Part shown: positions 471-57,175 of the stretch, in pieces | How positions within the stretch are numbered: the stretch's first letter is position 1 | How the letters are laid out: each line of letters opens with the position of its first letter | Origin: a bacterium | GTDB lineage: Bacteria; Patescibacteriota; Minisyncoccia; 1-14-0-10-42-19 | DNA length: 61,793 nt | NCBI GenBank assembly: GCA_030690215.1 | Contig: JAUYHD010000022.1 | Location: 1 to 61,793 of the forward strand | Reading direction: 5' to 3' | Position numbers and translations under genes: made by a program | The notes under the pieces: model-generated | The model's input: the letters and a program-made list of their open reading frames with translations, nothing else | What the model was told of the DNA's origin: nothing | Database searches by the model: none

Positions 471-580
471 AAAAACATACAAAATCAAAACATTTGCACG
501 CTTGATGGGGGATGAATTTTTGCGTATACTGACTGCGGTTCTATATTTATACTTTTACAATATTTTTGAGAGGTGACGGA

Positions 581-1690
581 ATGCAGAGACTAACAGACGA
601 TACGGTGCGTAATCATCCGGATTTTGATAACCATATGATGGTTATTCATATTACTCGGGAGCGCTTCGGTTTGGAAGGAATAATCGCAATTCACGATACG
701 ACATTCGGAGACGCAACGGGCGGGACTCGCTTTTGGCCATACACATCCGTTTACGCCGCATTAAACGACGTGTTGCCGCTTTCACGCGATATGACATATA
801 AATCTGTCACTGCGAATGTGCCATGGGGCGGTGCAAAGTCGGTACTCATTGGGGACGCGGAGAAAGATAAAACGGAAGACATGGTTCGCGCGTACGCCTA
901 TTGTATCGAAAAGCTTCGCGGTCTTTTTAATACCGGGGAAGATATGGGGTTCCACGTACCTGATGTTGACATCATGGCAGAAATTACCAAGCATGTGTTC
1001 GGCCGTTCCGTAAAGGAGTATAAGGATGGCATCGTGGGAGGAGGCGATCCTTCGTTGAGCACAAAACACGGTGTTCTTTGCGGTATTCAGGTTGTTCTGG
1101 AGTTTTTATACGGAGATAAGAGTTTCAGAGGAAAGTCATTTTGCGTGCAAGGCGTTGGCGCTACCGGACTTCCTATCGCGAAAGCATTAAGCGAAGGCGG
1201 TGGGACGGTATTCATATCGGATATGAGCCAGCGGGCGATAGACAACGCGGTTAAAAATATAAACGCGCCAATCATCGTCGTGCCTCCAGGGATCGCGCAT
1301 AAAGTTTCCTGTGATGTGTTCGTGCCATGTGCCGGTGGGCGCGTTATAAATGAAAAAACGGTTGATGAATTTGATTGTCGAGCAATCGCGGGTTCCGCAA
1401 ATTGTATATTTACCAAATCAACCGCGCCATCCGCTGATTATTTGCATGCGATACGAAATATTCTTGTCGCGCCCGCGTATGTTATTAACGGCGGCGGGCT
1501 TATCCATATTTATCATGAGAAGATTGGATTTAATGCCGCAGCGGTACGGCGGGATGTTGAAAAAATAAGAGACCGCTTGATCCACATCTTTAAAGAAAGC
1601 GCATTACTCGGAAAGCCCCCGTACAAGATATCGGATGAGATAGTAGAGCGTAAGCTCCACGAAGAAGAAAGCAGACACATGAAACTGTAA
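581..1690 (+). CDS. Leu/Phe/Val dehydrogenase (Glu/Leu/Phe/Val dehydrogenase superfamily)
   Basis: IAIHDTT..GGTR, the catalytic-lysine region GGAKSVLIGD and the Rossmann motif VQGVGATG are collinear with leucine dehydrogenases as I recall them. GAGAGG RBS before ATG 581; the track start at 566 is a TTG. Confidence 0.85.
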   Translation: MQRLTDDTVRNHPDFDNHMMVIHITRERFGLEGIIAIHDTTFGDATGGTRFWPYTSVYAALNDVLPLSRDMTYKSVTANVPWGGAKSVLIGDAEKDKTEDMVRAYAYCIEKLRGLFNTGEDMGFHVPDVDIMAEITKHVFGRSVKEYKDGIVGGGDPSLSTKHGVLCGIQVVLEFLYGDKSFRGKSFCVQGVGATGLPIAKALSEGGGTVFISDMSQRAIDNAVKNINAPIIVVPPGIAHKVSCDVFVPCAGGRVINEKTVDEFDCRAIAGSANCIFTKSTAPSADYLHAIRNILVAPAYVINGGGLIHIYHEKIGFNAAAVRRDVEKIRDRLIHIFKESALLGKPPYKISDEIVERKLHEEESRHMKL

Positions 1691-11744: not shown

Positions 11745-11757
11745 GAATACCTATAAG

Positions 11758-11786
11758 GCCGGGCACTGTGCTCCGGCTTTTTTTTA
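11758..11786 (+). terminator. Terminator-like hairpin between prkA and yeaH
   Basis: GCCGG..CCGGC stem followed by TTTTTTTT. Confidence 0.5.
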
Positions 11787-11892
11787 TGATCTTATCTATT
11801 TCAGTTGTATCGTATCTTTGAGGGCAAAGGTAAAAATGCTACTATGGATACGAATAAGAATTGACAAATAAATATAAAAAGAGGTGTGTACT

Positions 11893-13170: not shown

Positions 13171-13179
13171 GAGGGAGCC

Positions 13180-29500: not shown

Positions 29501-30186
29501 ATAATTATTATTATGATGCGATGCTTAAGTACTATTTGCCTGTTGAAAAAATTTCTTCTCGCGACGAAGGGTTTTCAATCACGCGGGAACTGTATCGGGC
29601 TGATGACGAAAAACGTAGCAAGCCGGTCAGTGAGGCGAAGCAGGGGGATGTATTGAGGGTTCGTCTTGTTATTACCACTCCAACAGTAAGGAATTTTGTT
29701 TCTGTGGAAGATTACATCCCTGCCGGAATGGAAATTGTTAATCTTCGGCTTGCGACCGAGGATCAATCTCTCCGCGAACAAAATCCCGGATATGATGATT
29801 TGTATCGGCCTTATTACTATTATGAAGACGGCGCCGGTGCAGTGCGCGGTTTTAATCTTGCGGGCGCAGGTTCGTTTTTGCGCCAGTTTTTTGGAGGCGT
29901 TTCTCCCATTACTCCAGCAACTGACGGAGAACTTGAAGATGATTTTTATGGGAAGCAGGTTAACGTTGTCGCTCCTTTCTGGCCGGATGCCAATGAGCTT
30001 CACGATGACCGGGCGTTCTTATTTAAAGAACGGTTGCTACCGGGCGTATATGAATATGAATACTTTGTGCGTGCCCTTGTCCCCGGAACGTTCCATCATT
30101 TACCCGCTGTAGTAAATGAGATGTATTTTCCTGAAAATTTTGGCAGAACGCGAGGAGATATTTTTATGGTCAAAGAAGCTCAATAG
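23539..30186 (+). CDS. Alpha-2-macroglobulin family protein with thioester motif, N-terminally membrane-anchored
   Basis: 2215 aa. TM helix near residue 45, repeated MG-like beta-sandwich segments, the thioester site YPYGCSEQ and a C-terminal receptor-binding-like domain. PBP1C is adjacent. Confidence 0.9.
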   Translation: MDEIANPDISVTPKKEISQAGGISGGGGKKDNFLSFFSQYKKNIGIILFILVVAGLFYFSGVVEKFGSPRYEEPYTLVPEKISQSAAILVRLPEGIRMDADQAVEKITFEPVIAGEWISGKNDSELIFRPKTKLEFGKYYSVILAADEIRLEKDFLIDEDPRVISVFPDGGSEASEYSSITIVFNRPMVPLTTLDVLAKENVPVEILPQTPGRFKWITTRNLQFIPETRLQRSSSYIVRIKQGLVSLDGLSVAELEHRFTTRPLRYEDGQQGRRRGVSKTLYSQPIRIFFNQPVDIERTKQEFELTQVSRGRVDFTATYGVRSIYNEETRKYEHKLDKSILEIYNAQDRHGRKGFWDFNTNYSYVLKKAYPLEGDIDLRQSIAGSIATTDIIDTLSAESPRTEFAEPDLFDPQGKLWVTFFEDIDKDASSIDADLLKEIGYGEKCREPEEGEEVSYGKDCEKVTDYKRLSFTFDESKFKRGQQISLEFKKIFNRAGLRLNAETVTRSVTAYPELVVYKTVPAEGSLDAALTGMTLCTSNPLAVPDETTFYEWVKSNVTIGLWNWYPPFRVRSANSNSLCSPGQFQNTIRYGLVPEFPYKIALSVVDDFGQKISREVNFTSGKLSSFSRNFFHMQGRYNVTSPERTKLTFAVDNLEYVDMHICKISAETMLSYIEKRPNISSSPASLNCEQVFEKRIDLPKRYWSRVYFQANLNDYVTSPLGHYVVTFSHPDYRRVSREWNSASRQYVERVEGQLYEKSLLTVTKLAVQEKKIDRPELDIRTELDNAVLSQFPQNLYWVTEFGTLASVIGAKVDLYRKGQERVGSYSTDSDGIALTDTFEGLVGAVVRKDGDSAIVSSGIDRLQWGSSAVGVERTYLYTDRPIYRPGDKVSIKGLYRIGYDAQYEIFRDNDATIEIRDSNYDVALKKQVSISDYGTFITEFTLDAHAPLGTYSMAALDGYVTFDVEEYVPAAFKVETNADKEEYIAGGMAKISVNAEYYFGVPVEGGEVEYSVTTQNYYFDRYHDGYFRFGNDWYYDFDGYYGDTFISRGKVPLNKGGKASIEQQLDFAKLFKEEDGEKSKIFTVNITVKNKNGESISSQKSFIVHRGTFYAGINSDKNFLGKGEKTSLRIKTVDINGKEISANNILLEIKKIRWESYKRLEVDGNYYYRTEQKKETVQKDTLHTDRSGNASYEFALNDPGEYEASVSVEDADGNPIKATYDVYVSGTGSVTIRPTNNETLDLATDKGKVDVGEKIKIIIKSPFERAKALITLERGKIFKYDIISLTSNLVEYTFQVAKEHIPNLFASVLLISPDPEVKYGHIEYQVNTAERELDITVRSHKNNYLPGEEVWLEVETRDKKGNPVGSEVSLAVVDMSVLALKGNPKKDPVLFFYNGSPLTVSTASNIKNILHEADIPTGTKGGGGGSEDLAKKKRGVFKDTAFWEGVVHTDANGKTKVSFVLPDNLTTWQIESVGITKDTKVGVGYEEFKAQKDLMVVPLRPRFIIPGDQFFVGAKIFNETPSRQKLKIDIMSDTLLLTGKREISVSIEPHDTMTVYFPAEAPQNIQDGEHVFTLSAKNNDYEDTVENSIKITRNNTYESVATASYTNAEVTREYVYLPPNVLADRGGLEIKTSATLAVFLSDALNYLVEYPYGCSEQIASKLSALGILKRGLNLKNIADAFTLKDVEFEGQAYTPDDVVRIGLARLYENQDEDGGFAYYKGMEPNYYLTLHIAGALMDLKDAGYEVEDERIENAKEYIVRELKQKQQLLQDKDLLILVGYTLFRIDGAAYDPNVKNRIMSVAQDEAFIQEKISNVGLSYLAILIANDDAADSLEEDVFDTLENRLVIDSRGASLRPQGDNYVYQFYETPIKDTALMIKALAKSERENPVLDKMLRWILRSRAKDGAWGSTNNTVTVIDALTDFLVWKKENESQFDLALVVDQNALGEFSFDKNSILKTFEKFVPIQEIGLGKLRSLVFTKTNKNTAPNNYYYDAMLKYYLPVEKISSRDEGFSITRELYRADDEKRSKPVSEAKQGDVLRVRLVITTPTVRNFVSVEDYIPAGMEIVNLRLATEDQSLREQNPGYDDLYRPYYYYEDGAGAVRGFNLAGAGSFLRQFFGGVSPITPATDGELEDDFYGKQVNVVAPFWPDANELHDDRAFLFKERLLPGVYEYEYFVRALVPGTFHHLPAVVNEMYFPENFGRTRGDIFMVKEAQ

Positions 30187-32303
30187 TTTTTTTCTTTGAC
30201 GATATCAATTTTTACTTTTTGGGTCTTTTGATTCGCTCCGCGTGCGGTTATCAGGTAGATACCCGCTGCGGAGGGGCTCCATGAGATGCGATTTCCTGTG
30301 CCAAGAAAGGTATCGTTGACGCTCCAGTCCACTGTTTCATTTGCGATAAGCGGTATGGTCATTCCATTTTCAAAATACAGAGTATCGTTATGGTGCGGTT
30401 GTGTTACGAGGGCATTATTTTTTAGAATACCGCGAGCAAATGCGTAATCATCTCCCTTGAGCCCATATTCCAATATGCCGTTTTCCGGGTATTCGGCAAT
30501 GGAATTAAAGCTAAATTCGCGCCCGGTATTGTATTCTCCGTTGAGTAAAATGGCCATAACGTCATGCCATATTTTTCCGGCTCCTACGGAGCCGGAAAGC
30601 TGTTGCATCGCGGTATTGTCGCTATTGCCGAGCCACACGCCGACTACAAAATCAGGAGTATATCCGATTGTCCAGCTATCATGATAATCATACGTTGTGC
30701 CTGTCTTTACCGCATAATTCGGTGAGGGCAGGTTGAGGTTGCTTTTGAGGCCGAATTGGCCAACGCCGGTACTGCGATCCGAAAGAATTTTCGTAACCAG
30801 TTCGGTATATGCCGGGTCAAAAATTTGTTTTTCGGTGTTCGGCTGTGTGCTCATGGGAAGTTCCGGGTATTGATTTTCAGTAATGATAAGAGGTTTAAGG
30901 ACTCCATTGTTCGGGAAAATGGAAAAATAATTTGCGAGACTTAATAAATCCATTTCAAGACCGCCAAGCGCGATGCTTAATTGGTATTGTTCAAGCGGTT
31001 GTTGCGGCCTAAATTCCAGATCTTTAGTAAGAAATTGTGCAAAATGTTCGAGCCCAACATATTCGAGTACTCGTACTGCAGGCACGTTCAAGCTATTTGC
31101 TAGGGCGTAATGAAGAGTCACTTCGCCTTGGTATTTCCCATCATAATTTTTAGGATAAAAAGCAAAACCAGTGCCGATTTCGTATTTGTATTCTGTGTCG
31201 TCCACGATCGTATAGGGGCGGGCGCCTTGTTTGAATGCCTCTGCGTAAATAAAGGGTTTCCAGGTAGACCCAATGGGGCGCGGTTTTAATGCCATATTGA
31301 TTTGATGTCCGCTTTGCGTGCTGTAGGGATACGGTGATCCAACGATTGCGAGTATTTCGTTTGCCGTTTTTGTCTTGTCGGTGCGCAATACAACAATGGC
31401 GCCATTGTGTACGCTTTGGAACGCAGGGCTTGCCAAGTTTTTTTGGAGCACCCCCCGTAATAACGCGCTAAGATTACTGTCCACCGTAAGATTACATGCG
31501 GTATCGCATTGATACAGAGAGGAGAGCTCAAATGAATTTTCATTTTTTCTTTTGTAGGCGTAATCATTGTCGGCAGTACTTCGGTTTTCTTTCGTGATGG
31601 CGTTTTCATCCATTGAGATGCCAAATCGTTTCGCATATGCCCTGACCCGTTGGTCGTTCTTTACCGTATAGGGGATGTCGGCGGGGCGGCTAAGTGTTGC
31701 AAGAAGCTGTAACAATTGTGTGTCTGTGAGGGCTTCAGGGTCGCTATTAAAATATACACGCGACGCTTCAACGATTCCCCCTGTCTGTTCCCCAAAATAT
31801 GCAGTATCAGCATACATAGTTAGAATATCGTTTTTTGATTTATGAAGTTCGAGGCTGAATGCGTATATTGACTCAATAATTTTATTGAAAAACGTTCTTT
31901 TGTTTTCGTTTGCGAGAAGATTTTTTACGAGTTGTTGCGTTATAGTACTTGAGCCGCTAAAACGGCCGGTAAATATATATCCAAAAGAGCTGCGAAGAAT
32001 GCTCGCTGGGTTAATACCTACGTGATAGAAAAAGAAACGATCCTCCTTTCTTACCAGAAGATCTTTGAACCGTTCCGGCACGGCACCGGGGCGCATATAA
32101 TGACCCTTTATATTCGGCTGTATCAGGAGTTCCTCTCCTTTTCTGTCTTTGATTGTTATAGACAATTGATTTGCATAAAGGGTTTGAAGGCGCGAACTGA
32201 AGTAAAAGGAAATGCCGTATGCGAGCACAACAAAAAAAGCTATGCGCATAAGCGCGCGGCGGCTTCGGAGTCTTTTTACATATGTTAAAAAGGCACGCTT
32301 CAT
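30180..32303 (-). CDS. pbpC: Penicillin-binding protein 1C (glycosyltransferase + transpeptidase)
   Basis: GT51 motifs RKEDRFFFYHVG and GSSTITQQL. Transpeptidase motifs STWK, SLN and KTGT. C-terminal PBP1C-type extension. Confidence 0.88.
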   Translation of the reverse strand: MKRAFLTYVKRLRSRRALMRIAFFVVLAYGISFYFSSRLQTLYANQLSITIKDRKGEELLIQPNIKGHYMRPGAVPERFKDLLVRKEDRFFFYHVGINPASILRSSFGYIFTGRFSGSSTITQQLVKNLLANENKRTFFNKIIESIYAFSLELHKSKNDILTMYADTAYFGEQTGGIVEASRVYFNSDPEALTDTQLLQLLATLSRPADIPYTVKNDQRVRAYAKRFGISMDENAITKENRSTADNDYAYKRKNENSFELSSLYQCDTACNLTVDSNLSALLRGVLQKNLASPAFQSVHNGAIVVLRTDKTKTANEILAIVGSPYPYSTQSGHQINMALKPRPIGSTWKPFIYAEAFKQGARPYTIVDDTEYKYEIGTGFAFYPKNYDGKYQGEVTLHYALANSLNVPAVRVLEYVGLEHFAQFLTKDLEFRPQQPLEQYQLSIALGGLEMDLLSLANYFSIFPNNGVLKPLIITENQYPELPMSTQPNTEKQIFDPAYTELVTKILSDRSTGVGQFGLKSNLNLPSPNYAVKTGTTYDYHDSWTIGYTPDFVVGVWLGNSDNTAMQQLSGSVGAGKIWHDVMAILLNGEYNTGREFSFNSIAEYPENGILEYGLKGDDYAFARGILKNNALVTQPHHNDTLYFENGMTIPLIANETVDWSVNDTFLGTGNRISWSPSAAGIYLITARGANQKTQKVKIDIVKEKNY

Positions 32304-35594: not shown

Positions 35595-36773
35595 TTATCG
35601 TTCTAATGTTCCGCGCAATTCTTGTTCGTGTTCTATGGACTCAAAAAGCGCTTTAAAGTTCCCGATGCCGAATCCTTTCGCTCCCATGCGCTGGATTATC
35701 TCAAAAAAGAGCGTTGGCCGATCTTCTTGCGGTTTGGTAAATACCTGCAGAAGGTACCCATCTTCATCCGCGTCTACAAGAATAGATAATTCCTGCAGTG
35801 ATTGTATATCTTCCTTGAACGAATCCTTATGCGCTCCCAAGCGTTGCGGTATTTCGTCATAATACGCTTGGGGCGGGCGGGAGAGAAATTCAACGCCTCG
35901 CGCGCGAAGCGCACGTACTGTTTTGATAATGTCATCGGTAGCTACCGCAATATGCTGGACGCCCGGGCCTTCGTAAAAATCGAGGTATTCTTCTATCTGC
36001 GACTTTTTCTTTCCTTGCGCCGGTTCATTAATAGGGAATTTGATACGGCCGTTGTTATTTGCCATCACCTTACTCATGAGCGCTGACCATTTGGTATGAA
36101 TCTGTTTGTCGTCAAACGTTAAGAAGTTCGCAAACCCCATAACGACTTCGTACCATTTTGCCCACACGACCATCTGTCCCAATTGCACGTTGCCTACCAT
36201 GTGGTCAATGAATTTTAAGCCGACCGGCGGAGGATTATAATCGGGTTTCCATTCTTTGTATCCTGGAAGAAAGGGGCCATTGTAGTTTTTGCGTTCTACA
36301 AAAACATGCACCGTGTCTCCGTAGGTATGGATTCCTGAACGAACCGTTCCCCCATACTCGTCTTTTTCAACGGTGGGCTCCATGTATGGTATTGCTCCAC
36401 GTTCGGTGGTTTCTTCAAACGCGCTACGCGCATCATCTACCCAGAGAGCAATTACTTTTACGCCGTCACCGTGCTTTTTTGCATGTTCACCTATGGGCGA
36501 ATCGCTATGGAGTGCCGAAGTAAACACCAATTTTATTTTATCCTGCGCTACAACGTATGAAGTCCTGTCGCGCATTCCTGTTTCAAGCCCCGCGTATGCA
36601 AGCGGTTGAAAGCCGAACGCAGTCTGGTAGTAGTACGCTGCTTGTTTGGCGTTACCCACATAAAACTCAACATAGTCAGTTCCCAAAAGCGGGAGAAAAT
36701 CCTTTGCTTCGGTGAATATTTTTTCTAAGCCGTATTCCACGTTTTTTATCTCGGGTGAAGATGTTTTTCCCAT
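35595..36773 (-). CDS. hppD: 4-hydroxyphenylpyruvate dioxygenase
   Basis: Two VOC modules. The C-terminal signature FFEIIQRMG..GFGIGNFKALFESIE is typical of HPPD. Confidence 0.92.
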   Translation of the reverse strand: MGKTSSPEIKNVEYGLEKIFTEAKDFLPLLGTDYVEFYVGNAKQAAYYYQTAFGFQPLAYAGLETGMRDRTSYVVAQDKIKLVFTSALHSDSPIGEHAKKHGDGVKVIALWVDDARSAFEETTERGAIPYMEPTVEKDEYGGTVRSGIHTYGDTVHVFVERKNYNGPFLPGYKEWKPDYNPPPVGLKFIDHMVGNVQLGQMVVWAKWYEVVMGFANFLTFDDKQIHTKWSALMSKVMANNNGRIKFPINEPAQGKKKSQIEEYLDFYEGPGVQHIAVATDDIIKTVRALRARGVEFLSRPPQAYYDEIPQRLGAHKDSFKEDIQSLQELSILVDADEDGYLLQVFTKPQEDRPTLFFEIIQRMGAKGFGIGNFKALFESIEHEQELRGTLER

Positions 36774-36913
36774 CTCTCCCTCCCTGTGAAGTTTTTAAAA
36801 TTCGTTCATACTGTAAAGAATATTGGTGATCGTGTCTATATTGACATAAGCAGAAACACGTGATACCCTTTCTGGGATAGCATTTTGAAAATTTTCTAGA
36901 TTAGGGAGGTTGT

Positions 36914-38179
36914 ATGTCTGCACTTTATTTTTCGACCGGGTCTTATCAAAAAAAGAGCATGGCTCGTAAGGGGTACGAGCATCTTTTGAAAAAAATGGAT
37001 GGGTCGCCGCGTGGGGATTTGTATGTAGGGAAGATTGGTTTTGCTACCGAACTCTATATGGAAAAACTGCCGACTCTTATCAAACGTGTATCTGAGATAG
37101 CGGATAGGGATTTTGAGATTAGGTTTGCGGAAGTAGAAAATAATCTTTCCCCGCAGGCGTTCAAAATCGCGCAACGGTTAAAAAAGAGGGAGACGCCATA
37201 TACTCTTCTCAGTACAGATGACCAGCAAATTACCATACGGGCTTGTGTTTTTGGTCCGTCGCGTCCTACGCTTCGTTTTTTGAATATGGATGCGGATAGC
37301 GTTTGGTTTGTGTATAAAGGGAGTGGTTTTTGTGATACTACCCTTGGGCGAATATTTTTTGAGTCAGGGGATTTTGTATATATCCCAGCCCGCATATGTT
37401 ATAAATTTAGCGCAATCGGCAACAAAGAAACGGATAAAGTTATTATGATAGGGATGGAAGGCGCTAGTGGTTTTCAAGAACCCCAGCCAAGAGTGTTTGA
37501 TAATAACGATATCCCATATTCTTATGAAGATATTCGTTTGCCTGACCCGTGTGATATGCGCGATCTTGATATGTATGATTGCGCGGAGCTTACTAGCAAG
37601 GTTGAGGATTTTTACGTTTTTGTAAAACGGAATCGCAGATGGAGCAGGGTAACGTATCCGTTTACGCCGTTTCAATGCGTCGCGTGGAAAGGAACGGTGT
37701 ATCCGTTTGCGGTGCACGAGAGCGATCTTCATTTTTCCTACACCACCGACATTCATCCCGACCCGTCTAATTTCGCGATGTTTGCTGCCAAAGATTTTTC
37801 TGCGGTGATTTCGGTTCTTAAGGGACGTTTTGTGCATAGTATTCCGTATAACCACCTCAACACGTTGGAAGAATTTCTTTTTTATGGGAAGGAATACGAA
37901 GCGCGTAAAGGCAGTGTGGTTGGCGAAGGAGGAGACGCAACACTCCATCCGCAGGGCGTGTGGCATGGACCACAGCCGAAAGCATTACGAGAATGGAAGC
38001 GCCCAGCATCTCCAAAGGACATACCCTTTGTCGATGATCTGGCGATTATGTTTGAAGCTTCAAAGCCATTGCTTTTGTGTGAAGATGGCGCTGACATAGC
38101 TGTTTCCGGGTATGAACGTTCTTGGTATGAAGATTGGGAAGAATACCAGGAACTGCAAGAAGAACATCAGGAATTGTAA
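36914..38179 (+). CDS. hmgA: Homogentisate 1,2-dioxygenase-like cupin protein
   Basis: Cupin core and a C-terminal ..ATLHPQGVWHGPQP resembling the HGD ..LH..M.PHGP. region. Lies divergent from hppD and upstream of an FAH-family gene. Assignment rests partly on context. Confidence 0.62.
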   Translation: MSALYFSTGSYQKKSMARKGYEHLLKKMDGSPRGDLYVGKIGFATELYMEKLPTLIKRVSEIADRDFEIRFAEVENNLSPQAFKIAQRLKKRETPYTLLSTDDQQITIRACVFGPSRPTLRFLNMDADSVWFVYKGSGFCDTTLGRIFFESGDFVYIPARICYKFSAIGNKETDKVIMIGMEGASGFQEPQPRVFDNNDIPYSYEDIRLPDPCDMRDLDMYDCAELTSKVEDFYVFVKRNRRWSRVTYPFTPFQCVAWKGTVYPFAVHESDLHFSYTTDIHPDPSNFAMFAAKDFSAVISVLKGRFVHSIPYNHLNTLEEFLFYGKEYEARKGSVVGEGGDATLHPQGVWHGPQPKALREWKRPASPKDIPFVDDLAIMFEASKPLLLCEDGADIAVSGYERSWYEDWEEYQELQEEHQEL

Positions 38180-38340
38180 AAAGAGAAAAAGCAAAATAGC
38201 ACCCCGTTAGATGAACGTCCCGTTAGATAGGCCAGCCGCCATCCCACGGGACTATCTAACGGGGTTTACTTTTTGTAGAAAGTATTGTATATAAAAGAAG
38301 GTGTTGTTTAAAATTGACACAGAAGGAGGTAGGGCTTGCT

Positions 38341-39135
38341 ATGGACACACGGTCCTTCATTGATAAGACAAACCGGCATCTGCGGGATTTTCTTGGTTTT
38401 GAGGAACATATGCGCCAGATCCGCAAACAGCGAGGGGATTCTGTCCCTGATGCGTGGTATCGTTTTCCCTATTATTACGAATTGTTGCTTGGAAAAGATA
38501 AAATGCGCCATTCCGGCGAGTTGCTTCGTTTCCCATCGTATGTTCAGAAAAAAGATTACGAATTTGAGATCGTCGGGATGTTCTTAAAGCCGATAAAAAC
38601 GACGGACAAAAAGGAAGCAATCGCACACATACGCGACCACATGGTCTTTTGTATCTTTAATGACGCGAGCTGCAGGGATTTTCAAGCACGCGATATGCTG
38701 TTGCCATTAGGCGTTTCTAATTCCAAAGGAATTGCCGACAAGAGTTTCGGTCCGCTTTGTCTGCAGGGCGGGGATATTCCTATGGACGAGAACGGCGTGT
38801 TCAATATTCCCATGAGCCTTCATGTAAACGACGAACTTCGCGCGTATACGAATTTTAATACGATCTATTTTACGCACCCGAAGACAGGAGAATTAAAAAA
38901 CTGGTCGTTTGCTGAAGCAGTAGTTTTTATGGGATATATGAACCAGGGATTTGAGGAGGGTTCGCTTATTGGTTCAGGAACGGTCGGCAATGGTTCCATT
39001 GCCGAGCATACGGATCGTTATCCGTGGCTTACAGACGGCGATCGTATATGTATGCACGCCAAAGGATTGGGAGATTTGGCGAATGTGGTAGAGATTGTTC
39101 CTATGGTTGACCCGATGGAAATATACAAAGAGTAA
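38341..39135 (+). CDS. Fumarylacetoacetate hydrolase (FAH) family protein
   Basis: DYEFEIV, FNDASCRDFQ..LG.SNSKG and GSGTVG segments match the FAH catalytic domain. AAGGAGG RBS 8 nt before ATG 38341. Confidence 0.78.
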   Translation: MDTRSFIDKTNRHLRDFLGFEEHMRQIRKQRGDSVPDAWYRFPYYYELLLGKDKMRHSGELLRFPSYVQKKDYEFEIVGMFLKPIKTTDKKEAIAHIRDHMVFCIFNDASCRDFQARDMLLPLGVSNSKGIADKSFGPLCLQGGDIPMDENGVFNIPMSLHVNDELRAYTNFNTIYFTHPKTGELKNWSFAEAVVFMGYMNQGFEEGSLIGSGTVGNGSIAEHTDRYPWLTDGDRICMHAKGLGDLANVVEIVPMVDPMEIYKE

Positions 39136-39144
39136 GGAGGGATT

Positions 39145-39807
39145 ATGCCAAAACATATCACTGTTGTGTCCGAGACGTTTGATCCGGATATCATGAAGGA
39201 GTTGCTGAAGACAGAAAGACTTTTTTTTGGAGATGCGCACGTATTGTATCCTGCCGATTGCGATGGGTCGCATCTTACCCGGTTTTTTATGGTAGAGAAG
39301 ATACTTTCGGGAGAAAATGATTTTTCATCGTTTATCGCGCTTGATATATACAACTGGATCAGGCGTGAAAAGATAGACTTTGATTTTGTTTTTGCGCCGG
39401 CACAACCTGGGGTAAAAGAAATCGCAAAAATAATTGCGCGGGAATTCAAAAAACAATACGCATTATGGGATTATTTTCCTACGGGAAGATTTGGCGATAT
39501 GGCGGCAAAAGATTCGCCGCCGATGATTCCTTTCGGTAGGGCTCTCATGTTTAACGGCATGAGCGCGCAAGGGAGATGTATCGGAGATCGTCTTCCGAGC
39601 TTTTTAAAACGATGCCAGGCATATCCGGTTGCAGCCGCTGTATTTGCGAAAGGAACGACTGGATTGGTGAATAAGGTGGAAGAAACATTTGGTTCAAGAT
39701 TTTATTCTACGATTCAGGTTGATATTCCTGTGTATACTCGTGGTACGTGTCCCAAATGCAAGAGCGGGGATGTTGCTAGCTTGCAAAGATGGACTGATCT
39801 TCAATAA
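39145..39807 (+). CDS. Hypothetical protein, possibly a degenerate phosphoribosyltransferase-like fold
   Basis: GGAGGG RBS. FDFVFAPAQPGV..IA and ALMFNGMSAQG resemble PRTase strands, but the acidic PRPP motif is absent. C-terminal CPKC. Confidence 0.4.
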   Translation: MPKHITVVSETFDPDIMKELLKTERLFFGDAHVLYPADCDGSHLTRFFMVEKILSGENDFSSFIALDIYNWIRREKIDFDFVFAPAQPGVKEIAKIIAREFKKQYALWDYFPTGRFGDMAAKDSPPMIPFGRALMFNGMSAQGRCIGDRLPSFLKRCQAYPVAAAVFAKGTTGLVNKVEETFGSRFYSTIQVDIPVYTRGTCPKCKSGDVASLQRWTDLQ

Positions 39808-39815
39808 ATATTAGA

Positions 39816-39850
39816 GCCGAGAACAGAAATGTTTTCGGCTTTTATTTTTG
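39816..39850 (+). terminator. Intrinsic terminator (left copy of a duplicated terminator-promoter cassette)
   Basis: GCCGAGAAC..GTTTTCGGC followed by TTTTATTTTT. Confidence 0.7.
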
Positions 39851-39898
39851 ATGATTGTGTGGTATTGTTCTAAAAAATTAAAAGGAGGAGTATTGAAT

Positions 39899-40306
39899 AT
39901 GCCCTTTGTTGATTTGGTGGACACGCTATTTGCGAAACTCGCAGACGGACAAACAGATAAATTTTTTGAACATGTGTGGGACAATGTGACATGGACGGTC
40001 CATGGGACTCATGCGCTGGCAGGCGTATATCGCGACAAAAATACTTTTTTGAAAAACGCACTTGGAGAGGTTCGCAAACGGCTTAAGGGAAATTGGACAT
40101 TAAAAATAAAAAATATAATTGTATCGAATTATTACGATACTGCAGTTGTGGAAATGGAATCATTGTCCGTCGCTCTGAATGGTAAGCCTTTCAATAATAC
40201 GTATTGTTGGATAGTTCATTTCCAGAGAGATGTCATTGTTCGGGTAGATGCATATGTTGATTCTGTGTTAGTCCAGCAATTGCTAGATGAAAATCCAATA
40301 GACTAA
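39899..40306 (+). CDS. SnoaL/NTF2-like (ketosteroid-isomerase-fold) protein
   Basis: About 135 aa. The pattern ..FFEHVWDNVTWTVHG..AGVYRDKNTFL.. is typical of SnoaL_2-type proteins. AAGGAGGAG RBS. Confidence 0.55.
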   Translation: MPFVDLVDTLFAKLADGQTDKFFEHVWDNVTWTVHGTHALAGVYRDKNTFLKNALGEVRKRLKGNWTLKIKNIIVSNYYDTAVVEMESLSVALNGKPFNNTYCWIVHFQRDVIVRVDAYVDSVLVQQLLDENPID

Positions 40307-40313
40307 TACTAAA

Positions 40314-40345
40314 GCCGAGAAGAATATTCTCGGCTTTTATTTTTG
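40314..40345 (+). terminator. Intrinsic terminator (right copy of the cassette)
   Basis: GCCGAGAA-GAATA-TTCTCGGC followed by TTTTATTTTT. Confidence 0.7.
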
Positions 40346-40438
40346 GTGATTTTGTGGTATCGTGCACATGGATAAATACACAAAAGACCCTTCTACGTTT
40401 CGCTTTTACGGAACTTTGAAGGGCGAGGGTCTTTGAAA

Positions 40439-42424
40439 ATGGCAGAGAAAACATATGCATGGGAGCCGAACGAATATTTTTTGAACGAATCGCGCATCGC
40501 GCGCTTTATGCAGAAATACGGAATTTCTTCATGGCAGGAGTTGATAGAACGATCAAATGACATTGATTGGTTTTGGCCACGAGCCTTGGATTTCCTGGGC
40601 ATTCAGTGGTTTACGCCGTATGCGGAACTGTATGATAATTCGCAAGGAATTTCGCATACCAAGTGGTTCATCGGCGGGAAGCTGAATATTTACGAAAATT
40701 GCATTGAGCGCAACATCAAGCGCGGGCTGGGAGACAAAACATGTATATTCTACGAGCACGAATCGGGCAAAGAAAGTAAAGCAACCTTTTCCGAATTCAA
40801 AGAGTTCATTGACGCAATTGCCTCATCCATGAAAGCAAACGGCATTAAGAAAGGTGATTTTGTAGGAATGTGCATGCCGATATCAATTGAATCTGCGGCA
40901 GTTATGTTTGCGTGTTTCAAGATTGGCGCGGTATGCATCCAAATGGCGCCGACCATCACGCAAGCCGGAGTAGAAGACATTATCAGCCACATTCAAATCA
41001 CAAAAGCGAAAATGCTTTTTATGGTTGATGAGTATATCTATAAAGGAAAAGAATATGCATTGAACGACATATACTACGGCTTGAGAGATATGCTTTGTTT
41101 GGAACACGTTGTTGTTTTGGGAAATACTGTTTCTTCACAGCATTTTTCTTCTTTTCTTATTGAAGAATATGGGAAAGGCGAACGAGAAGTGTTATGGGAA
41201 GATTTTTTAAAAAAGGGGATTGGGAAGAAGGTGCGCACCGAACGATGCAGTGCCGAGGATCTTGCACTCATGCTTTTTAGCTCGGGCACCACGGATACTC
41301 CCAAACGTATTCTTCATACCCACGGAGGCGTGCTTGCGCAGGTATGCAAGGAAGTTGGATTTGCCTTTGACTGCAAAGAAGATGATGTCTTTTACTGGAT
41401 GACAAATTTCGGTTGGATGATGGCGCCGTGGGAAATTATCGGCGCATTGTATTTCGGGGCGTCGCTTGTTTTTTTTGAAGGAGTGCCGATGCATCCGAAG
41501 GCAGATCGTGTCTTTGAAATTATACAAAAATACAGAGTTACGATTCTGGGTTCTACGCCGGGTCATATTACGGGATTTCGCGATGCAAATGTAACTGGAG
41601 AGGGATATGATCTCTCATCATTGCGGATACTGGGGTCTACTGGAGATACGCTCCATCCGGAAAATTGGATATGGTATTTCGAAATATTCGGGAAATGCAA
41701 ATGCCCGATTATAAATATCATAGGGGGGACAGAATTGATTGGATGCATATTTTCTCCTCTGGGTATCATGATATTGTATCCGGGCACCGTCGGTTCGTTC
41801 GCGTTAGGCATGGGAGCAGAAGTGGTGGATGACTATGGTAATCCGATTCGTAATCGCATGGGGCAAGTGGTATGCACAGTTCCTTTCCCATCAATGACAC
41901 GGAGTTTTTTTGAAGATGAAAAAGGATTTCAGGATACATACAAATTCAATCCCTATTGGAATCATTCTGATTTTGCCATCGCGGATGATAATGGTTTTGT
42001 ATACATGATGGGGCGAAGTGACGATGTTGTTCCTAAGGATGGGCATAAGTTTTCTCCCGCAAAAATAGAGGGAGCGCTTGTAAGTTATGGGGGGGCGGAT
42101 TTTCGAGTGATGGAAGCGGCGGCAATCGGCGTTTCAAATGCAATACTTTGTTTTGTGGTGGTCCAAGGGAAAAATATGCTTAGCGAAGCCGATGTATATG
42201 CCCTTAAAACACTCGTTGCAAAAATTGTTCATCCTGTTGCCAAGCCAGACAGGATCTATCCGGTAAAAGCACTGCCGAGAAATGCCGCGGCAAAAGTTCC
42301 GCATAAAGATATCAGGAAGGCATTTTCCGGGGAAGATATGAGCAACGTTAAATTATTAAACCCTGAATCGCTCAAGGCGATACAAGAATACGGAAAAGAA
42401 TTTTTTTCTGCCGATAATATATAA
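40439..42424 (+). CDS. Acetoacetyl-CoA synthetase-like AMP-forming acyl-CoA ligase
   Basis: AMP-binding motif FSSGTTDTPKRILHTHGG. The N-terminal region (..W.PNEYFLNESRIARFM..) and the length of about 660 aa resemble acetoacetate/acetate-CoA ligases. Confidence 0.75.
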   Translation: MAEKTYAWEPNEYFLNESRIARFMQKYGISSWQELIERSNDIDWFWPRALDFLGIQWFTPYAELYDNSQGISHTKWFIGGKLNIYENCIERNIKRGLGDKTCIFYEHESGKESKATFSEFKEFIDAIASSMKANGIKKGDFVGMCMPISIESAAVMFACFKIGAVCIQMAPTITQAGVEDIISHIQITKAKMLFMVDEYIYKGKEYALNDIYYGLRDMLCLEHVVVLGNTVSSQHFSSFLIEEYGKGEREVLWEDFLKKGIGKKVRTERCSAEDLALMLFSSGTTDTPKRILHTHGGVLAQVCKEVGFAFDCKEDDVFYWMTNFGWMMAPWEIIGALYFGASLVFFEGVPMHPKADRVFEIIQKYRVTILGSTPGHITGFRDANVTGEGYDLSSLRILGSTGDTLHPENWIWYFEIFGKCKCPIINIIGGTELIGCIFSPLGIMILYPGTVGSFALGMGAEVVDDYGNPIRNRMGQVVCTVPFPSMTRSFFEDEKGFQDTYKFNPYWNHSDFAIADDNGFVYMMGRSDDVVPKDGHKFSPAKIEGALVSYGGADFRVMEAAAIGVSNAILCFVVVQGKNMLSEADVYALKTLVAKIVHPVAKPDRIYPVKALPRNAAAKVPHKDIRKAFSGEDMSNVKLLNPESLKAIQEYGKEFFSADNI

Positions 42425-42609: not shown

Positions 42610-45600
42610 ATGAAGGAAATGGCGGATATGGAGAAAAAAGAAGTACCGGCTCAAAAAACGATATTTCCTCAGATAGAAGAGGAAGTTCTTTCGTATTGGA
42701 CGAAAAACGATACATTCAAAAAAGTTCTTGCGAAAACAGCAAAGGGCAAGAAGTTTGTCTTTTATGAAGGCCCTCCCTATGCGAATGGCCGTCCGGGTAT
42801 TCACCATGTACTTGCGCGCGCCTATAAAGACGTTGTGTTGCGGTTTAAGACGATGCAGAGATATAGCGTGCCAAGAAAAGCTGGCTGGGATACGCATGGG
42901 CTCCCTGTAGAGATGGAGGTTGAGAAAAAATTGAATGTTCATTCTAAAAAAGAAATTGAGACATTGGGGATTGAAAAATTTATTGAAACTGCACGACATA
43001 GCGTTTTTGAGTATAAAAAGGATCATGAAAAGATGACACGACGCATGGGGTATTGGTTGGATTTGGAAAATGCATATGTCACAATGACCAACGAATATAT
43101 AGCGGGTTTGTGGCGGGTGTTTGGAGAGATCGCAAAGAATGGATATGTCTACCGTGATTACAAAGTGCTTCCGTGGTGTCCCCGGTGCGAGACCTCTCTT
43201 TCGTCGCACGAAGTTGCGCAGGGATATAAAAAGGTAAAAGACACCGCGATAACCGTAAAATTTCAAATTTCTAATTCTCAATTTCCAAACACATTTTTTT
43301 TGGCATGGACTACGACGCCGTGGACTTTGCCGGGGAATGTTGCATTGGCAATAAATTCGAAAGTTAGATATGTAAAAATAAAGCCACAAGACACAAATGA
43401 GATTTATATAGTAGCAAAAGATTTATTGCTTAAGGTTTTTCCAGAGTTTAATGGAGCAGATCTCGGGTTTATAAATGGGAAAGATTTAATTGGTTTAAAG
43501 TATGAACCATTGTACGAGACGAAGACTCAAGATAAAGAATCAAAGATATACGAAGTTATTGCGGGGGATTTTGTAACCACCGAAGACGGTACTGGTATTG
43601 TGCATATTGCGCCTGCGTTCGGAGCGGATGATCAGAAAGTGGGAAAGAAAAACAATTTGCCCACGCTCGTTACGGTTGGCGAGGATGGGAAAATGAAAAC
43701 GCCGGGATACGCATGGGACGGCAAAATGTTTTTTGAGGCAAATCCAATTATTATCAAAGATCTCGCCGAAAAAAAACTTCTTTTTAAAGAAAAAGTATAC
43801 GAGCATGATTACCCATATTGCTGGCGATGCAAGTCGGCACTCATGTATTACGCAAAAAATTCGTGGTTTTTAAAAACAACCGCGGTAAAAAGCGCGATGC
43901 AGAAAGAAAACGCAAAAGTAGATTGGCACCCCGATTTTATGGGAACAAATCGGTTTGGCGAATGGCTTCGTGAAAATGTTGATTGGGCGATTTCACGCGA
44001 GCGATATTGGGGCATGCCGCTTCCAATTTGGAAATGCGATGCGTGTGATTTGCATGAAATAGTTTCTTCTCTGGAAGATTTAGACAAGCGGGCAATGCCC
44101 GATACAACAGAGCTCTATGTAATGCGCCATGGCGAAGCGACACACAATGTAAATGGAGTTGTGGGACCTGCGATTCCTAAAACAGACAAGAAGAATGAGT
44201 TAACCGAAAAGGGTAAAGAGCAGGCAAAAAAAACCGCACAAACGCTCAAAGGAAAAATTGATGTTATCGTATGCTCGCCTTTGCGCCGCACAAAGGATAC
44301 GGCGCACATTGTATCTAAGGAATTAGGGGGACTTCCCGTGGAAGTGGAAGAAAGCATCCATGATATTGATGTTGGCGAATACACGGGGAAGAAAATCATA
44401 GAAGTTAATAAAATATTTCCGCGCGAAGAACGCTTTACGCATCCCTTTCCCAACGGTGAAAGCATGCGTGATGTCCGCGTTCGCATGATGAAAAATATTC
44501 GCGATATTCTTTTGCGTAACAAAGGCAAGCGGATACTTGTTATTTCTCATGGCGATCCGTTGTGGGAACTCTACGCCGCTCTTGAAGGAAAGAAAGAAGA
44601 AGATTATTTTGCCTCGTGGTATCCGAAAACGGGAGAAACAAAAAAATTAGATTTGCACAACTGGCCGTATAGCATGGAACGGGGCGAACTTGATTTTCAC
44701 CGGCCGTATATTGACGGTATTTTGCTTCAATGCAAAAAATGCAAAAAAGAGATGCGTCGTATCCCTGATGTCGCTGATGTCTGGTTTGATTCGGGCGCAA
44801 TGCCGTATGCGCAAAATTCAGATTCGTTACAAGTAATTGGAAATTGGAAATTGTCCTCCAAAGGCGGATCCGCCTCGGGCGGAAAAATTGAAAATTTGCG
44901 CAAGCATATAGATTATCCTGCTGACTATATTTGCGAGGGGGTTGACCAGACGAGGGGATGGTTTTATACATTGCTCGCGGTTGCCTCCCTCATGCATCTT
45001 CCGGTGCCGTACGAAAATGTAATAACGGTTGGTTTGGTTCTTGATAAAAAAGGCGAGAAGATGTCAAAATCGCGCGGTAACACTGTTGACCCGTTTTTAC
45101 TTTTTGAGCAGTATGGCGCGGATGCGGTGCGATGGTATTTTTATACGATTAATCAGCCATGGGACGAAAAATTATTTGATGAACGCGACGTGCAATCGGC
45201 CTCCCGTAAGTTTTTGATGATATTTTGGAATGTATTTCGGTATTGGGAAGGCATTACGCATAGCGCAAATTTAAAATTACAAATTCCAAAACCGAAATTA
45301 TTAATTAATATCTGGCTGTTGGCGCGCTTGCAAGAAGTTTCAATCTCTATAACAAAACACCTAGAAGAGTATGAAGTTGTAAAAGCGGCGCGTCTCCTTG
45401 AAGAATTTGTGGGAGAAGACATATCGCGCTGGTATGTGCGCCGTATCCGGGATGGTATGAAAATAGGAAAAGAAAACGAACGAAACGAGACCGATGCCGT
45501 GCTGGGTTTCGTACTGCGCGCAACTTCGCTTCTTGCAGCACCTTTCGCGCCGTTTATAAGCGAAGCGGTAGGAAGGCGTGCGGGCATACACCATAGCGTT

Positions 45601-46158
45601 CACGAAGAAACATGGCCGAAATATAAGGCGGTAGGCGTGAAGGAAAGGGTGTTGTTGGAAGACATGAAAGAAGCGCGGGGCATCGTTTCTTTGGCGTTGC
45701 AAGAGCGCGCAAAAGCCGGCATAAAAGTGCGCCAACCACTCGCTTCGCTTAAGCTCAAAGCTCAAAGCTCAAAGCTCAAAGCTGATAAAGAATTGCAAGA
45801 ATTAATAAAAGGAGAGGTGAACATAAAAGATATCGTATTTGATGCACATATAAAAAATTCAGTTGAGCTTGATACGGCGCTTACTCCGGAATTAAAACGA
45901 GAAGGATCGTTCCGCGAGCTTGTGCGGCGCATACAAGACATGCGCAAAGAAGCAGGTCTTACCCCCAAAGATTCAATTATTCTTCATATCGGAAGCGATG
46001 AAAAAGGAAAAGCATTTATTGATGAATACAAAAAAGATATTCAAACAGCGGTGACCGCGGAATCAATTGTTGAAGAGGCGCTTTCGCATCAGCTTTTTAT
46101 GAAGGCAGTCCTGCAGATTGATGATTACTATTTTGAAATTGGAATTATTAAAAAATAG
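42610..46158 (+). CDS. ileS: Isoleucine--tRNA ligase (type 2) with an inserted histidine-phosphatase domain
   Basis: PYANGRPGIHH (HIGH), CP1 editing motif TTTPWTLPGN, DWAISRERYWG, KMSKSRGN. Residues from about 500 to 690 carry RHGE, SPLRRT and SHG motifs. Confidence 0.95.
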   Translation: MKEMADMEKKEVPAQKTIFPQIEEEVLSYWTKNDTFKKVLAKTAKGKKFVFYEGPPYANGRPGIHHVLARAYKDVVLRFKTMQRYSVPRKAGWDTHGLPVEMEVEKKLNVHSKKEIETLGIEKFIETARHSVFEYKKDHEKMTRRMGYWLDLENAYVTMTNEYIAGLWRVFGEIAKNGYVYRDYKVLPWCPRCETSLSSHEVAQGYKKVKDTAITVKFQISNSQFPNTFFLAWTTTPWTLPGNVALAINSKVRYVKIKPQDTNEIYIVAKDLLLKVFPEFNGADLGFINGKDLIGLKYEPLYETKTQDKESKIYEVIAGDFVTTEDGTGIVHIAPAFGADDQKVGKKNNLPTLVTVGEDGKMKTPGYAWDGKMFFEANPIIIKDLAEKKLLFKEKVYEHDYPYCWRCKSALMYYAKNSWFLKTTAVKSAMQKENAKVDWHPDFMGTNRFGEWLRENVDWAISRERYWGMPLPIWKCDACDLHEIVSSLEDLDKRAMPDTTELYVMRHGEATHNVNGVVGPAIPKTDKKNELTEKGKEQAKKTAQTLKGKIDVIVCSPLRRTKDTAHIVSKELGGLPVEVEESIHDIDVGEYTGKKIIEVNKIFPREERFTHPFPNGESMRDVRVRMMKNIRDILLRNKGKRILVISHGDPLWELYAALEGKKEEDYFASWYPKTGETKKLDLHNWPYSMERGELDFHRPYIDGILLQCKKCKKEMRRIPDVADVWFDSGAMPYAQNSDSLQVIGNWKLSSKGGSASGGKIENLRKHIDYPADYICEGVDQTRGWFYTLLAVASLMHLPVPYENVITVGLVLDKKGEKMSKSRGNTVDPFLLFEQYGADAVRWYFYTINQPWDEKLFDERDVQSASRKFLMIFWNVFRYWEGITHSANLKLQIPKPKLLINIWLLARLQEVSISITKHLEEYEVVKAARLLEEFVGEDISRWYVRRIRDGMKIGKENERNETDAVLGFVLRATSLLAAPFAPFISEAVGRRAGIHHSVHEETWPKYKAVGVKERVLLEDMKEARGIVSLALQERAKAGIKVRQPLASLKLKAQSSKLKADKELQELIKGEVNIKDIVFDAHIKNSVELDTALTPELKREGSFRELVRRIQDMRKEAGLTPKDSIILHIGSDEKGKAFIDEYKKDIQTAVTAESIVEEALSHQLFMKAVLQIDDYYFEIGIIKK

Positions 46159-55932: not shown

Positions 55933-56946
55933 CTATTGTCTTTCCGCAATCGGTTTTAAATAAGAATCAAGTAACGCGTCCATATGCTTAAACGATTCGC
56001 AGACAAAAAATATCGGGTTGAAGGCATATACAGTTTTGGGAATACGTGCGATGGTTTCTACGTCAAACGGCGCGAGTATTACTCCGCCTCCGAAATAGCC
56101 GCGACGGGCAATGTTTAATTTGGTATACAGGGAATCCATTACATTCCATCCCGCTTCTGGAGACGACATATTTCCTTGTTCGTGCAGCTCATTGACGCCG
56201 TCAGTGATGCGATATATGTCGCTCTTATGTGCGGCGAACTGATCGGTAAGCTGGTTGAATATGTCTTTTGTATAATCAATCATGTTGTCGCGGGAAAGCC
56301 GATAGAACTCCATGATGGTGTTTGCAAGTTCCGCACGGCCAGAAAGGATTCCCGCACCGAATATCTTGAAGCGATTTTCTTCTATGACCAATCCGAACTC
56401 GGTACTGTACCATGCAAGACGCTTGATAACTTCCTTTTCTTCCGGTGTCGCTTTCAGGTATGCGGGAGCGAATTTATCTTCAATATCGGCATAGAATTTC
56501 TGTGTTAGGTATGGCAAGTGCCCGAAAATATCATGGAACATGTCTGGTTTTGGTGTAAACTCCATCTCATTGCGATCCCGCAAATAATCGGTAACAAGAA
56601 AAATGCGTTTTGCAAATTTCGGATACCAATTATCCCCTTCGGTGTATCGCACGATCGTGCGTTCTACTTTCCATCCCGTGCGAGAGGCAATGTGTCTGTT
56701 GAGGTGGGCAACAGTAGGGATGCGGCGCGGTTCGAGTTCTAGCAGAGGTAATCCATTTTTGAACTCCCGACAGATATGTTCCAATATATATGGCTGATGA
56801 ATGCCCGCGTATAAATCTGCCCAAATCGCGTGTTGTTCTGGGGAAAAATCAATTTCCTGGTTAAGAGCGGTGTACTCTTTTGTCGGATCAATATCCTGAT
56901 GAGCAATATCGCCTGTATAGAACGGCTCTTTTTTTTCTTCGGTCAT
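55933..56946 (-). CDS. phhA: Phenylalanine 4-monooxygenase (aromatic amino acid hydroxylase)
   Basis: Iron-binding region PDMFHDIFGHLPYL and ..WYSTEFGL... GAGGAGGG RBS before ATG 56946. The longer track ORF crosses the divergent promoter region. Confidence 0.85.
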   Translation of the reverse strand: MTEEKKEPFYTGDIAHQDIDPTKEYTALNQEIDFSPEQHAIWADLYAGIHQPYILEHICREFKNGLPLLELEPRRIPTVAHLNRHIASRTGWKVERTIVRYTEGDNWYPKFAKRIFLVTDYLRDRNEMEFTPKPDMFHDIFGHLPYLTQKFYADIEDKFAPAYLKATPEEKEVIKRLAWYSTEFGLVIEENRFKIFGAGILSGRAELANTIMEFYRLSRDNMIDYTKDIFNQLTDQFAAHKSDIYRITDGVNELHEQGNMSSPEAGWNVMDSLYTKLNIARRGYFGGGVILAPFDVETIARIPKTVYAFNPIFFVCESFKHMDALLDSYLKPIAERQ

Positions 56947-57116
56947 ACTATAATCCCTCCTCGCAATCGGTGATTGCAAAGCCCAATATGATGATACAAT
57001 TTTTAAAGATTGCAAGGTCATGGTATCACCGGAAAAAAAGCAGGTCAACAGAAGAGCGTACAAAAATTCCCAATCATTTCTATATGCGCGCGGGGCTTTT
57101 CTTTTGGAAAAAATTG

Positions 57117-57125
57117 TGGTATTAT
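57117..57125 (+). promoter_or_regulatory. Extended -10 promoter TGGTATTAT
   Basis: TGnTATTAT motif about 50 nt before ATG 57176. Confidence 0.45.
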
Positions 57126-57175
57126 GCAAACGATGTTTTTTGAAAAATAAAAATAAACCCGCCCTTGTTAACACT

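Follow-up and report, generated by a model that had tools for sequence, protein, structure and literature searches.

A homogentisate-pathway gene cluster in a small Patescibacteriota genome encodes, next to its fumarylacetoacetase-family hydrolase (FAH), an orphan protein that is read here, from gene context and motif and at a probability of roughly 55%, as a glutathione-free maleylacetoacetate cis-trans isomerase that uses its own cysteine and was recruited from a scaffold resembling orotate phosphoribosyltransferase (OPRT). The cluster lies in a stretch of 61,793 nucleotides (the window), which is the entire 61.8-kb contig JAUYHD010000022.1 of assembly GCA_030690215.1; the genome, a member of the candidate phyla radiation (CPR), amounts to 1.02 Mb and is 96% complete. 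The six open reading frames have the positions and order given in an initial annotation made from the sequence: hppD, encoding 4-hydroxyphenylpyruvate dioxygenase (HPPD); a gene for a homogentisate-dioxygenase-like cupin, here called hmgA; the FAH gene; the orphan; a SnoaL/NTF2-like gene; and an acyl-CoA ligase gene (Table 1). The same annotation had pointed out that the window lacks the usual zeta-class glutathione S-transferase (GST) isomerase and had named the orphan and the SnoaL-like protein as candidate replacements. A broader proposal stands at about even odds: a phosphoribosyltransferase (PRT) scaffold would have become a cofactor-free single-cysteine isomerase with which Nitrospira, Thermoplasmata, Melainabacteria and CPR bacteria break down tyrosine, and in this Patescibacteria genome, where no heme-copper oxidase was found, it would complete a route that consumes oxygen and leads from phenylalanine to acetyl-CoA.

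Fold and motif of the orphan protein

The orphan matches no Pfam family, PF00156 included, and reaches 13.5 bits against the TIGR01367 cut-off of 150. Its predicted structure has the PRT fold and not the GST fold, and the protein falls outside the isomerase family TIGR01262. The top hits of both Foldseek (E 1e-7) and VIA are all OPRTases, with a VIA Z score of 14.8 and a root-mean-square deviation of 3.8 over 176-182 residues at 8-16% identity, and PurR and PyrR are also among the fold matches.

The binding loop for phosphoribosyl pyrophosphate (PRPP), with its acidic pair and TG(x)T/S motif, is not found in the orphan. N137-G138 stand in place of the acidic pair, and position 138 is D in 68 of 69 outgroup proteins (other PRT-fold hits) and G, A, S or T in the core family. 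Past the phosphate loop, the candidate nucleophile C145 is located in the first turn of helix 144-156. The residue is carried by 23 of 24 core proteins and by all 120 Nitrospira relatives, but by none of the 69 outgroup proteins, counts that come from protein-search hits only, some loci having been picked by a pattern that included the cysteine. The phosphate loop combines N-G with Q-G-R-C in the core family and N-D with R-G-N-C in Nitrospira, while that of the outgroup closes with Ser, Thr or Gly. G143 is invariant and usually accompanied by R144, and D67, W71 and W216 are common to the archaeal and bacterial clades. H32, H43, C202 and C205 are regarded as inherited from the parent family because the outgroup has them too, and they probably form a structural metal site.

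An exhaustive profile search returns a compact orphan family followed by a tail of PyrE-like proteins. The Nitrospirota form of the family comprises 854 database proteins, many of them auto-annotated as orotate phosphoribosyltransferase. In a quick, midpoint-rooted tree, support is 100 both for the core family and for the Nitrospira family, and the two jointly occupy one side of a branch with an SH-aLRT value of 91. That the orphan might be a working PyrE is ruled out by the PRPP loop, the scores and the gene context; in a loose check for a separate PyrE, other PRT-domain genes were found in orphan hosts. A divergent member of the family (L142:5943-6650) keeps the cysteine and follows a squalene/phytoene-synthase-like gene, with no FAH gene nearby.

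Gene neighbourhoods of the orphan

In 86 of 93 loci fetched from genomes and metagenomes, which come from CPR, Thermoplasmata, Melainabacteria and Chloroflexota, the orphan has an FAH gene as its direct neighbour. Of the other seven, six place the orphan immediately after hmgA at a contig end, and one is without context. The order is hmgA-FAH-orphan in CPR and Nitrospira and hmgA-orphan-FAH in Thermoplasmata; Melainabacteria and others have an FAH-orphan or orphan-FAH pair and carry hmgA at another site. As the dioxygenases and hydrolases associated with the orphan are moreover of differing subtypes, the three gene orders indicate that the link between orphan and pathway survived rearrangement. 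An HgmA_C match is found in 27 of 33 orphan-bearing genomes, one further genome having hmgA beside the orphan, and in the loci seen the orphan never occurs in a pyrimidine context. The orphan thus co-occurs tightly with FAH and hmgA across at least four phyla, and it very probably belongs to the homogentisate pathway. Its nomination as a replacement isomerase is borne out by these neighbourhoods together with the absence of maiA described below.

Some of the loci have features of their own. In two Nitrospira loci (L145:10848-20756 and L146:10770-20756) the cluster runs into genes for a 2-oxoacid dehydrogenase complex, a thiolase, a 3-hydroxyacyl-CoA dehydrogenase and a B12 mutase, which makes it a large operon for amino-acid catabolism in a nitrifying bacterium. 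A small gene that looks rhodanese-like by eye stands divergently upstream of the FAH-orphan pair in Melainabacteria (L032:6562-6981 and 21 other loci), and at L143:3583-8421 an orphan-FAH pair lies directly downstream of three heme-biosynthesis genes. One CPR genome, G187, carries a lone dioxygenase gene (L132:1768-2988), and HPPD, orphan and GST were not found in it.

Known isomerases and a second candidate family

Neither maiA, GST_N nor MDMPI_N has a match anywhere in the source genome, at its 96% completeness, which extends the absence of a GST-zeta isomerase from the window to the whole genome and covers maleylpyruvate-isomerase homologues as well. The maiA model found nothing in the 36 genomes tested with it, MDMPI_N exceeded its cut-off in none of 37, and maiA was not found in the Nitrospira loci within the 20 kb covered for each. 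In L012, a Parcubacteria locus whose dioxygenase (49% identity) and hydrolase are of the same types as those of the window, a true maiA is present, at 262 bits over a cut-off of 171, and the orphan does not occur within 17 kb.

A sample of 201 Vampirovibrionia genomes, chosen without regard to the orphan, contains hmgA in 52 genomes, the orphan in 13 (10 of them with hmgA) and maiA over its cut-off in none. With 42 of the 52 hmgA-positive genomes lacking the orphan, most members do without it, and an FAH of the same type stands alone in them. A second candidate is an unnamed family encoded upstream of fahA, represented here by a profile built from six such genes. It sits beside fahA in Priestia, Streptomyces, Pseudonocardia and Rhodococcus where maiA is missing, and it occurs in 32 of the 42 orphan-less hmgA-positive Vampirovibrionia. 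Among 37 orphan-bearing genomes it is found in 11, all from the Melainabacteria sample, and is missing from 26; none was found in the CPR or Thermoplasmata genomes tested. The only copy of the orphan to have lost both N137 and C145 is encoded by a genome that carries this second family. In the genomes covered, the orphan and maiA exclude each other, the orphan and the fahA-upstream family overlap in 11 of 37 genomes, and clusters with neither exist. The largely complementary distribution of the two candidates is what alternative solutions to a single step would produce, although it is not clean.

Proposed mechanism and points against it

MaiA relies on glutathione, whose thiolate attacks the maleyl double bond and departs again after rotation about that bond. 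In the orphan, a protein thiol would play the role that glutathione has in MaiA. The former phosphate-binding loop, with G143 and usually R144, would hold the carboxylate of maleylacetoacetate, C145 would add to the enone double bond, and after rotation of the bond the C145 thiol would leave, yielding fumarylacetoacetate. One thiol may suffice because the 4-keto group would take the charge. C145 is put forward for this part because it is the sole new cysteine, at a helix start past an anion-binding loop, and because a search for glutathione synthetase in five CPR genomes came back empty. FAH would then release fumarate and acetoacetate, the ligase would form acetoacetyl-CoA, and a thiolase encoded elsewhere in the genome would convert it to acetyl-CoA.

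Several observations speak against an isomerase role. We know of no isomerase with the PRT fold. The orphan follows hmgA in 14 of 20 assessable Thermoplasmata clusters of matching type, but in the other six hmgA is followed directly by FAH, and for five of these six no orphan was found in the wider locus and no fahA-upstream family in the genome. The hppD, FAH and hmgA genes also occur without an adjoining orphan in eight Thermoplasmata loci with another hmgA type, in a Bacillus thuringiensis cluster and in CPR genome G049, the last two having neither candidate next to their pathway genes. The orphan gene is thus dispensable in relatives. One divergent member of the family is not beside FAH. 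In addition, 11 Obscuribacterales carry both candidates, and in ten of these eleven the median ratio of nonsynonymous to synonymous substitution rates is 0.029 for the orphan against 0.031 for FAH. Relaxed selection on the orphan where the fahA-upstream family is present was thus not seen, and strong purifying selection beside another candidate is not what simple redundancy predicts. Finally, the related genomes are not independent of one another and most are drafts, which also weighs against the proposal.

Alternative explanations

It could be speculated that the orphan is a pathway-linked damage-control enzyme, its C145 isomerising or removing maleylacetone-like side products or stripping thiol adducts, while the main flux runs via a non-enzymatic thiol route or another isomerase. 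Its purifying selection beside the fahA-upstream family and its clean loss from some clusters would suit such a role, and mice are known to have a bypass that is non-enzymatic and depends on glutathione, according to a title cited in PMC10970868. Yet no candidate besides the orphan turned up in CPR, Thermoplasmata and several Melainabacteria, and the exchange of maiA for the orphan within CPR points to the main step. A damage-control role is unlikely.

Rather less probable is an alternative that the initial annotation also raised, in which FAH acts on maleylacetoacetate itself and splits it into maleate and acetoacetate, so that no isomerase is needed and the orphan acts, for example, on maleate or as a ribosyl transferase with an unusual acceptor. 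Clusters with only hppD, hmgA and FAH are common, and HbzF offers a precedent for direct hydrolysis of a cis compound, maleylpyruvate (PMC5658364). However, the FAH retains the fumarylacetoacetase residues, the same FAH type occurs with a true maiA in L012, and the core family has lost the acidic pair for PRPP; an orphan acting on maleate would, in turn, still be a cysteine cis-trans isomerase. Direct hydrolysis and the non-enzymatic bypass could explain how clusters with neither candidate work, which keeps these alternatives alive.

A non-catalytic role for the orphan, which as a partner or ligand sensor would control FAH or the operon much as the PRT-fold proteins PyrR and PurR control nucleotide pathways, seems slightly more doubtful again. 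The orphan's pairing with FAH persists where hmgA and hppD lie at other sites, its fold matches include PurR and PyrR, and it has lost the catalytic acidic pair, all of which would suit a regulator. It has, however, no DNA-binding domain, the invariant new cysteine with D67, W71 and W216 across archaeal and bacterial clades fits a catalytic site better, and the same short FAH type functions without the orphan in many genomes.

That the SnoaL/NTF2-like protein is the replacement isomerase is highly improbable and was dismissed on distribution: the fold serves some isomerases and the gene lies inside the cluster in this genome, but it is present in one of five genomes searched and in none of the related loci, between duplicated terminator cassettes.

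The remaining genes of the cluster

The reading of the cluster as a tyrosine-degrading homogentisate pathway is supported, with hppD, a homogentisate dioxygenase with all its iron ligands, FAH and the ligase all present. The hppD gene diverges from hmgA and is equally placed in the loci of the same genus. In Nitrospira, Thermoplasmata and two CPR clusters, the place of hppD is taken by genes for single-domain, "half" HPPD-like proteins of 193-280 amino acids, which retain the His, His and Glu iron motifs and are possibly a minimal HPPD.

Taken alone, the cupin matches TIGR01015 at E 7e-10 with 38 bits against a cut-off of 511, and the Thermoplasmata dioxygenases, at 62 bits, are likewise below it. 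A profile of 15 homologues matches, besides human 1ey2, Pseudomonas 3zds (E 8e-17) and a third solved homogentisate dioxygenase. H281, H314, E320, H345 and H351 align with human H292, H335, E341, H365 and H371 and are invariant in the 15 homologues, as is P284, aligned with human P295, so that the His-Glu-His iron ligands and the substrate His/Pro motif are present. Its initial assignment to the homogentisate dioxygenase family is thereby upheld by solved structures and aligned ligands alike, and the cupin is, on this basis, a divergent subfamily predicted to cleave homogentisate.

The FAH was rightly taken for a short member of its family, although its length is 264 and not 265 residues, counted from the ATG at 38341. 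It scores 16 bits against the 375 of TIGR01266, being a short form in which the N-terminal domain is missing; its profile picks up mouse FAH at residue 125 and shares with it the N-terminal D-x6-H motif. D16, H23, E74, E76, D108, R112, Q115, K129 and T214 are invariant in a 17-row alignment, and the catalytic set is present, with both the D-x6-H and the R-x2-Q motif; some of the equivalences to known catalytic residues are presumed. The protein thus retains the fumarylacetoacetase residues and is a predicted fumarylacetoacetase.

The ligase reaches 354 of 639 and 303 of 521 bits against two acetoacetate-CoA ligase models, and the Acs models score slightly higher, also below their cut-offs. In an alignment it has Gly where Salmonella Acs has the acetyl-pocket Trp, and it has a GWMM motif, features which we take to be diagnostic of a larger acyl group. 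The protein is probably an acetoacetyl-CoA synthetase, as first suggested; support for this is moderate, coming from motifs and from a linkage seen within the genus only.

The SnoaL-like gene is best read as a local insertion outside the conserved unit, given its absence from the related loci and the duplicated terminator cassette flanking it. In the same-genus cluster the orphan is followed directly by the ligase, with no such gene between, and it was found neither in four related genomes of the five searched nor in any fetched locus. Terminator-like stems occur at 39813 and 40311, each overlapped by one copy of the repeat. The suggestion that this protein could supply the isomerase therefore fell away.

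Table 1 Features of the window and of compared loci.
Feature	Position	Strand	Evidence or remark
Glu/Leu/Phe/Val-type amino-acid dehydrogenase	566..1690	+	PF02812, PF00208
hppD, 4-hydroxyphenylpyruvate dioxygenase, 392 amino acids	35595..36773	-	TIGR01263 445 bits, cut-off 277
Divergent homogentisate 1,2-dioxygenase (predicted), 421 amino acids	36914..38179	+	15-homologue profile against 1ey2, E 4e-21
Short fumarylacetoacetase-type hydrolase, 264 amino acids	38341..39135	+	PF01557 E 9e-22; without N-terminal domain
Orphan, OPRT-type phosphoribosyltransferase fold, 220 amino acids	39145..39807	+	Model pLDDT 92; starts 9 nucleotides past the FAH stop
Codons for N137-G138, in place of the acidic pair of the PRPP-binding loop	39553..39558	+	
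Codon for C145, candidate nucleophile	39577..39579	+	First turn of helix 144-156 past the phosphate loop
41-nucleotide direct repeat, copy 1, before the SnoaL-like gene	39828..39868	+	Terminator hairpin end and downstream motif; 88% identical to copy 2
SnoaL/NTF2-like gene, 135 amino acids	39899..40306	+	Weak SnoaL_2 match, E 0.004, below cut-off
41-nucleotide direct repeat, copy 2, after the SnoaL-like gene	40323..40363	+	
Acyl-CoA ligase, 661 amino acids	40439..42424	+	Acs 378 bits, acetoacetate-CoA ligase 354 bits, both below cut-off
Phenylalanine hydroxylase-like gene	55933..57174	-	PF00351 E 1e-32; NCBIfam phenylalanine 4-monooxygenase 168 bits, below cut-off
Half HPPD-like genes	L145:7261-7842, L006:6826-7665, L008:11713-12438, L133:7236-8225		Match the C-terminal HPPD domain only

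Host genome and wider catabolic route

In a genome of the same genus, G002, the cluster precedes ileS-recO at the same site, and its proteins are 60-75% identical to those of the window, against 74% for ileS. A stray contaminating contig is accordingly unlikely, and the shared site with a divergence matching that of ileS argues for inheritance within the genus. Among named homologues of the orphan, the closest belongs to Ca. Niyogibacteria. Within the class the cluster is rare, the dioxygenase having four real matches among 401 genomes, and a survey of 587 CPR genomes found HPPD in one Paceibacteria genome only (PMC12577380). The early remark that such catabolism is unusual for a reduced, CPR-like genome thus agrees with the distribution.

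The phenylalanine hydroxylase-like gene at the far end of the window is, judged by its matches, the candidate for the upstream step of the pathway, and G002 likewise encodes a phenylalanine hydroxylase-like protein and a thiolase. The amino-acid dehydrogenase at the other end of the window is a possible supplier of 4-hydroxyphenylpyruvate; its top NCBIfam match is the tryptophan dehydrogenase ScyB model, below cut-off. Another contig of the genome, C8, carries a thiolase gene and a class IV aminotransferase gene (L148:244-9405), near two oligopeptidase-like genes and ATP synthase genes, a set that suggests peptide-fed catabolism. Heme-copper oxidase subunit I was not found in the genome, and entry of acetoacetyl-CoA into the mevalonate pathway was rejected, as five CPR genomes have no detected 3-hydroxy-3-methylglutaryl-CoA synthase. 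What emerges is a Patescibacteria genus with three oxygen-using enzymes, phenylalanine hydroxylase, HPPD and homogentisate dioxygenase, in one catabolic route.

Elsewhere in the window, the phenylalanine hydroxylase-like gene diverges from a split proline dehydrogenase/1-pyrroline-5-carboxylate dehydrogenase pair (55933-60087). Four large adjoining genes at 9645-17057 resemble, from their translations, a PrkA-type kinase, a YeaH-like protein, a SpoVR-like protein and a second PrkA-type kinase; one NCBIfam scan was negative. At 23539-32303, a gene of 2215 codons converges with one of 707 codons that by eye resembles penicillin-binding protein 1C, an arrangement that looks typical of bacterial alpha-2-macroglobulin loci. 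The isoleucyl-tRNA synthetase at 42610-46158 has an inserted histidine-phosphatase domain, as does the same-genus copy.

Comparison with known systems

The pathway and the reaction are already known, while the literature searched reports neither the scaffold nor the host: no paper on the orphan family or on a CPR homogentisate pathway was found there, with subscription journals mostly outside its coverage. Many glutathione-less organisms have hmgA and FAH, yet no known isomerase, and the orphan family supplies a small, single-domain candidate that has a named proposed catalytic residue and is common, with about 850 database proteins matching the Nitrospira form. If the isomerase assignment is true, it would mean new chemistry for the PRT fold and a correction of automatic annotations as orotate phosphoribosyltransferase.

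The fahA-upstream family has no sequence relation seen to the orphan, and the two have largely complementary distributions with an overlap in 11 Obscuribacterales. The zeta-class GST MaiA/HmgC/GSTZ1 (EC 5.2.1.2, TIGR01262) catalyses the reaction proposed for the orphan, takes the same position beside hmgA and FAH, and shares the inferred thiol addition-elimination; the hmgABC order of Pseudomonas putida, which we take to be hmgA-FAH-isomerase, corresponds to that of the CPR clusters. The orphan differs from MaiA in having a PRT instead of a GST fold, a host in which glutathione synthetase was not found, and a thiol that would be a protein cysteine. With PyrE of the Thermus/Helicobacter type (TIGR01367, PDB 4paw) it shares the fold (Foldseek E 1e-7, VIA Z 14-15), and with the PyrE-like outgroup the hood histidines and the C-terminal CPxC motif; it is unlike PyrE in its 8-16% identity, in N-G for the acidic pair and in Cys for the Ser, Thr or Gly of the loop.

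Maleate cis-trans isomerase resembles the proposed chemistry of the orphan in that it isomerises its substrate without a cofactor, via an enzyme cysteine. That enzyme (EC 5.2.1.1, Asp/Glu racemase superfamily; PMC4996985) has another fold, two catalytic cysteines and maleate as its substrate. The mycothiol-dependent maleylpyruvate isomerase NCgl2918 (DinB/YfiT; PMC5790435) is a non-GST answer to a similar step without glutathione, and it differs from the orphan in its DinB fold, its need for mycothiol and its place in the gentisate pathway.

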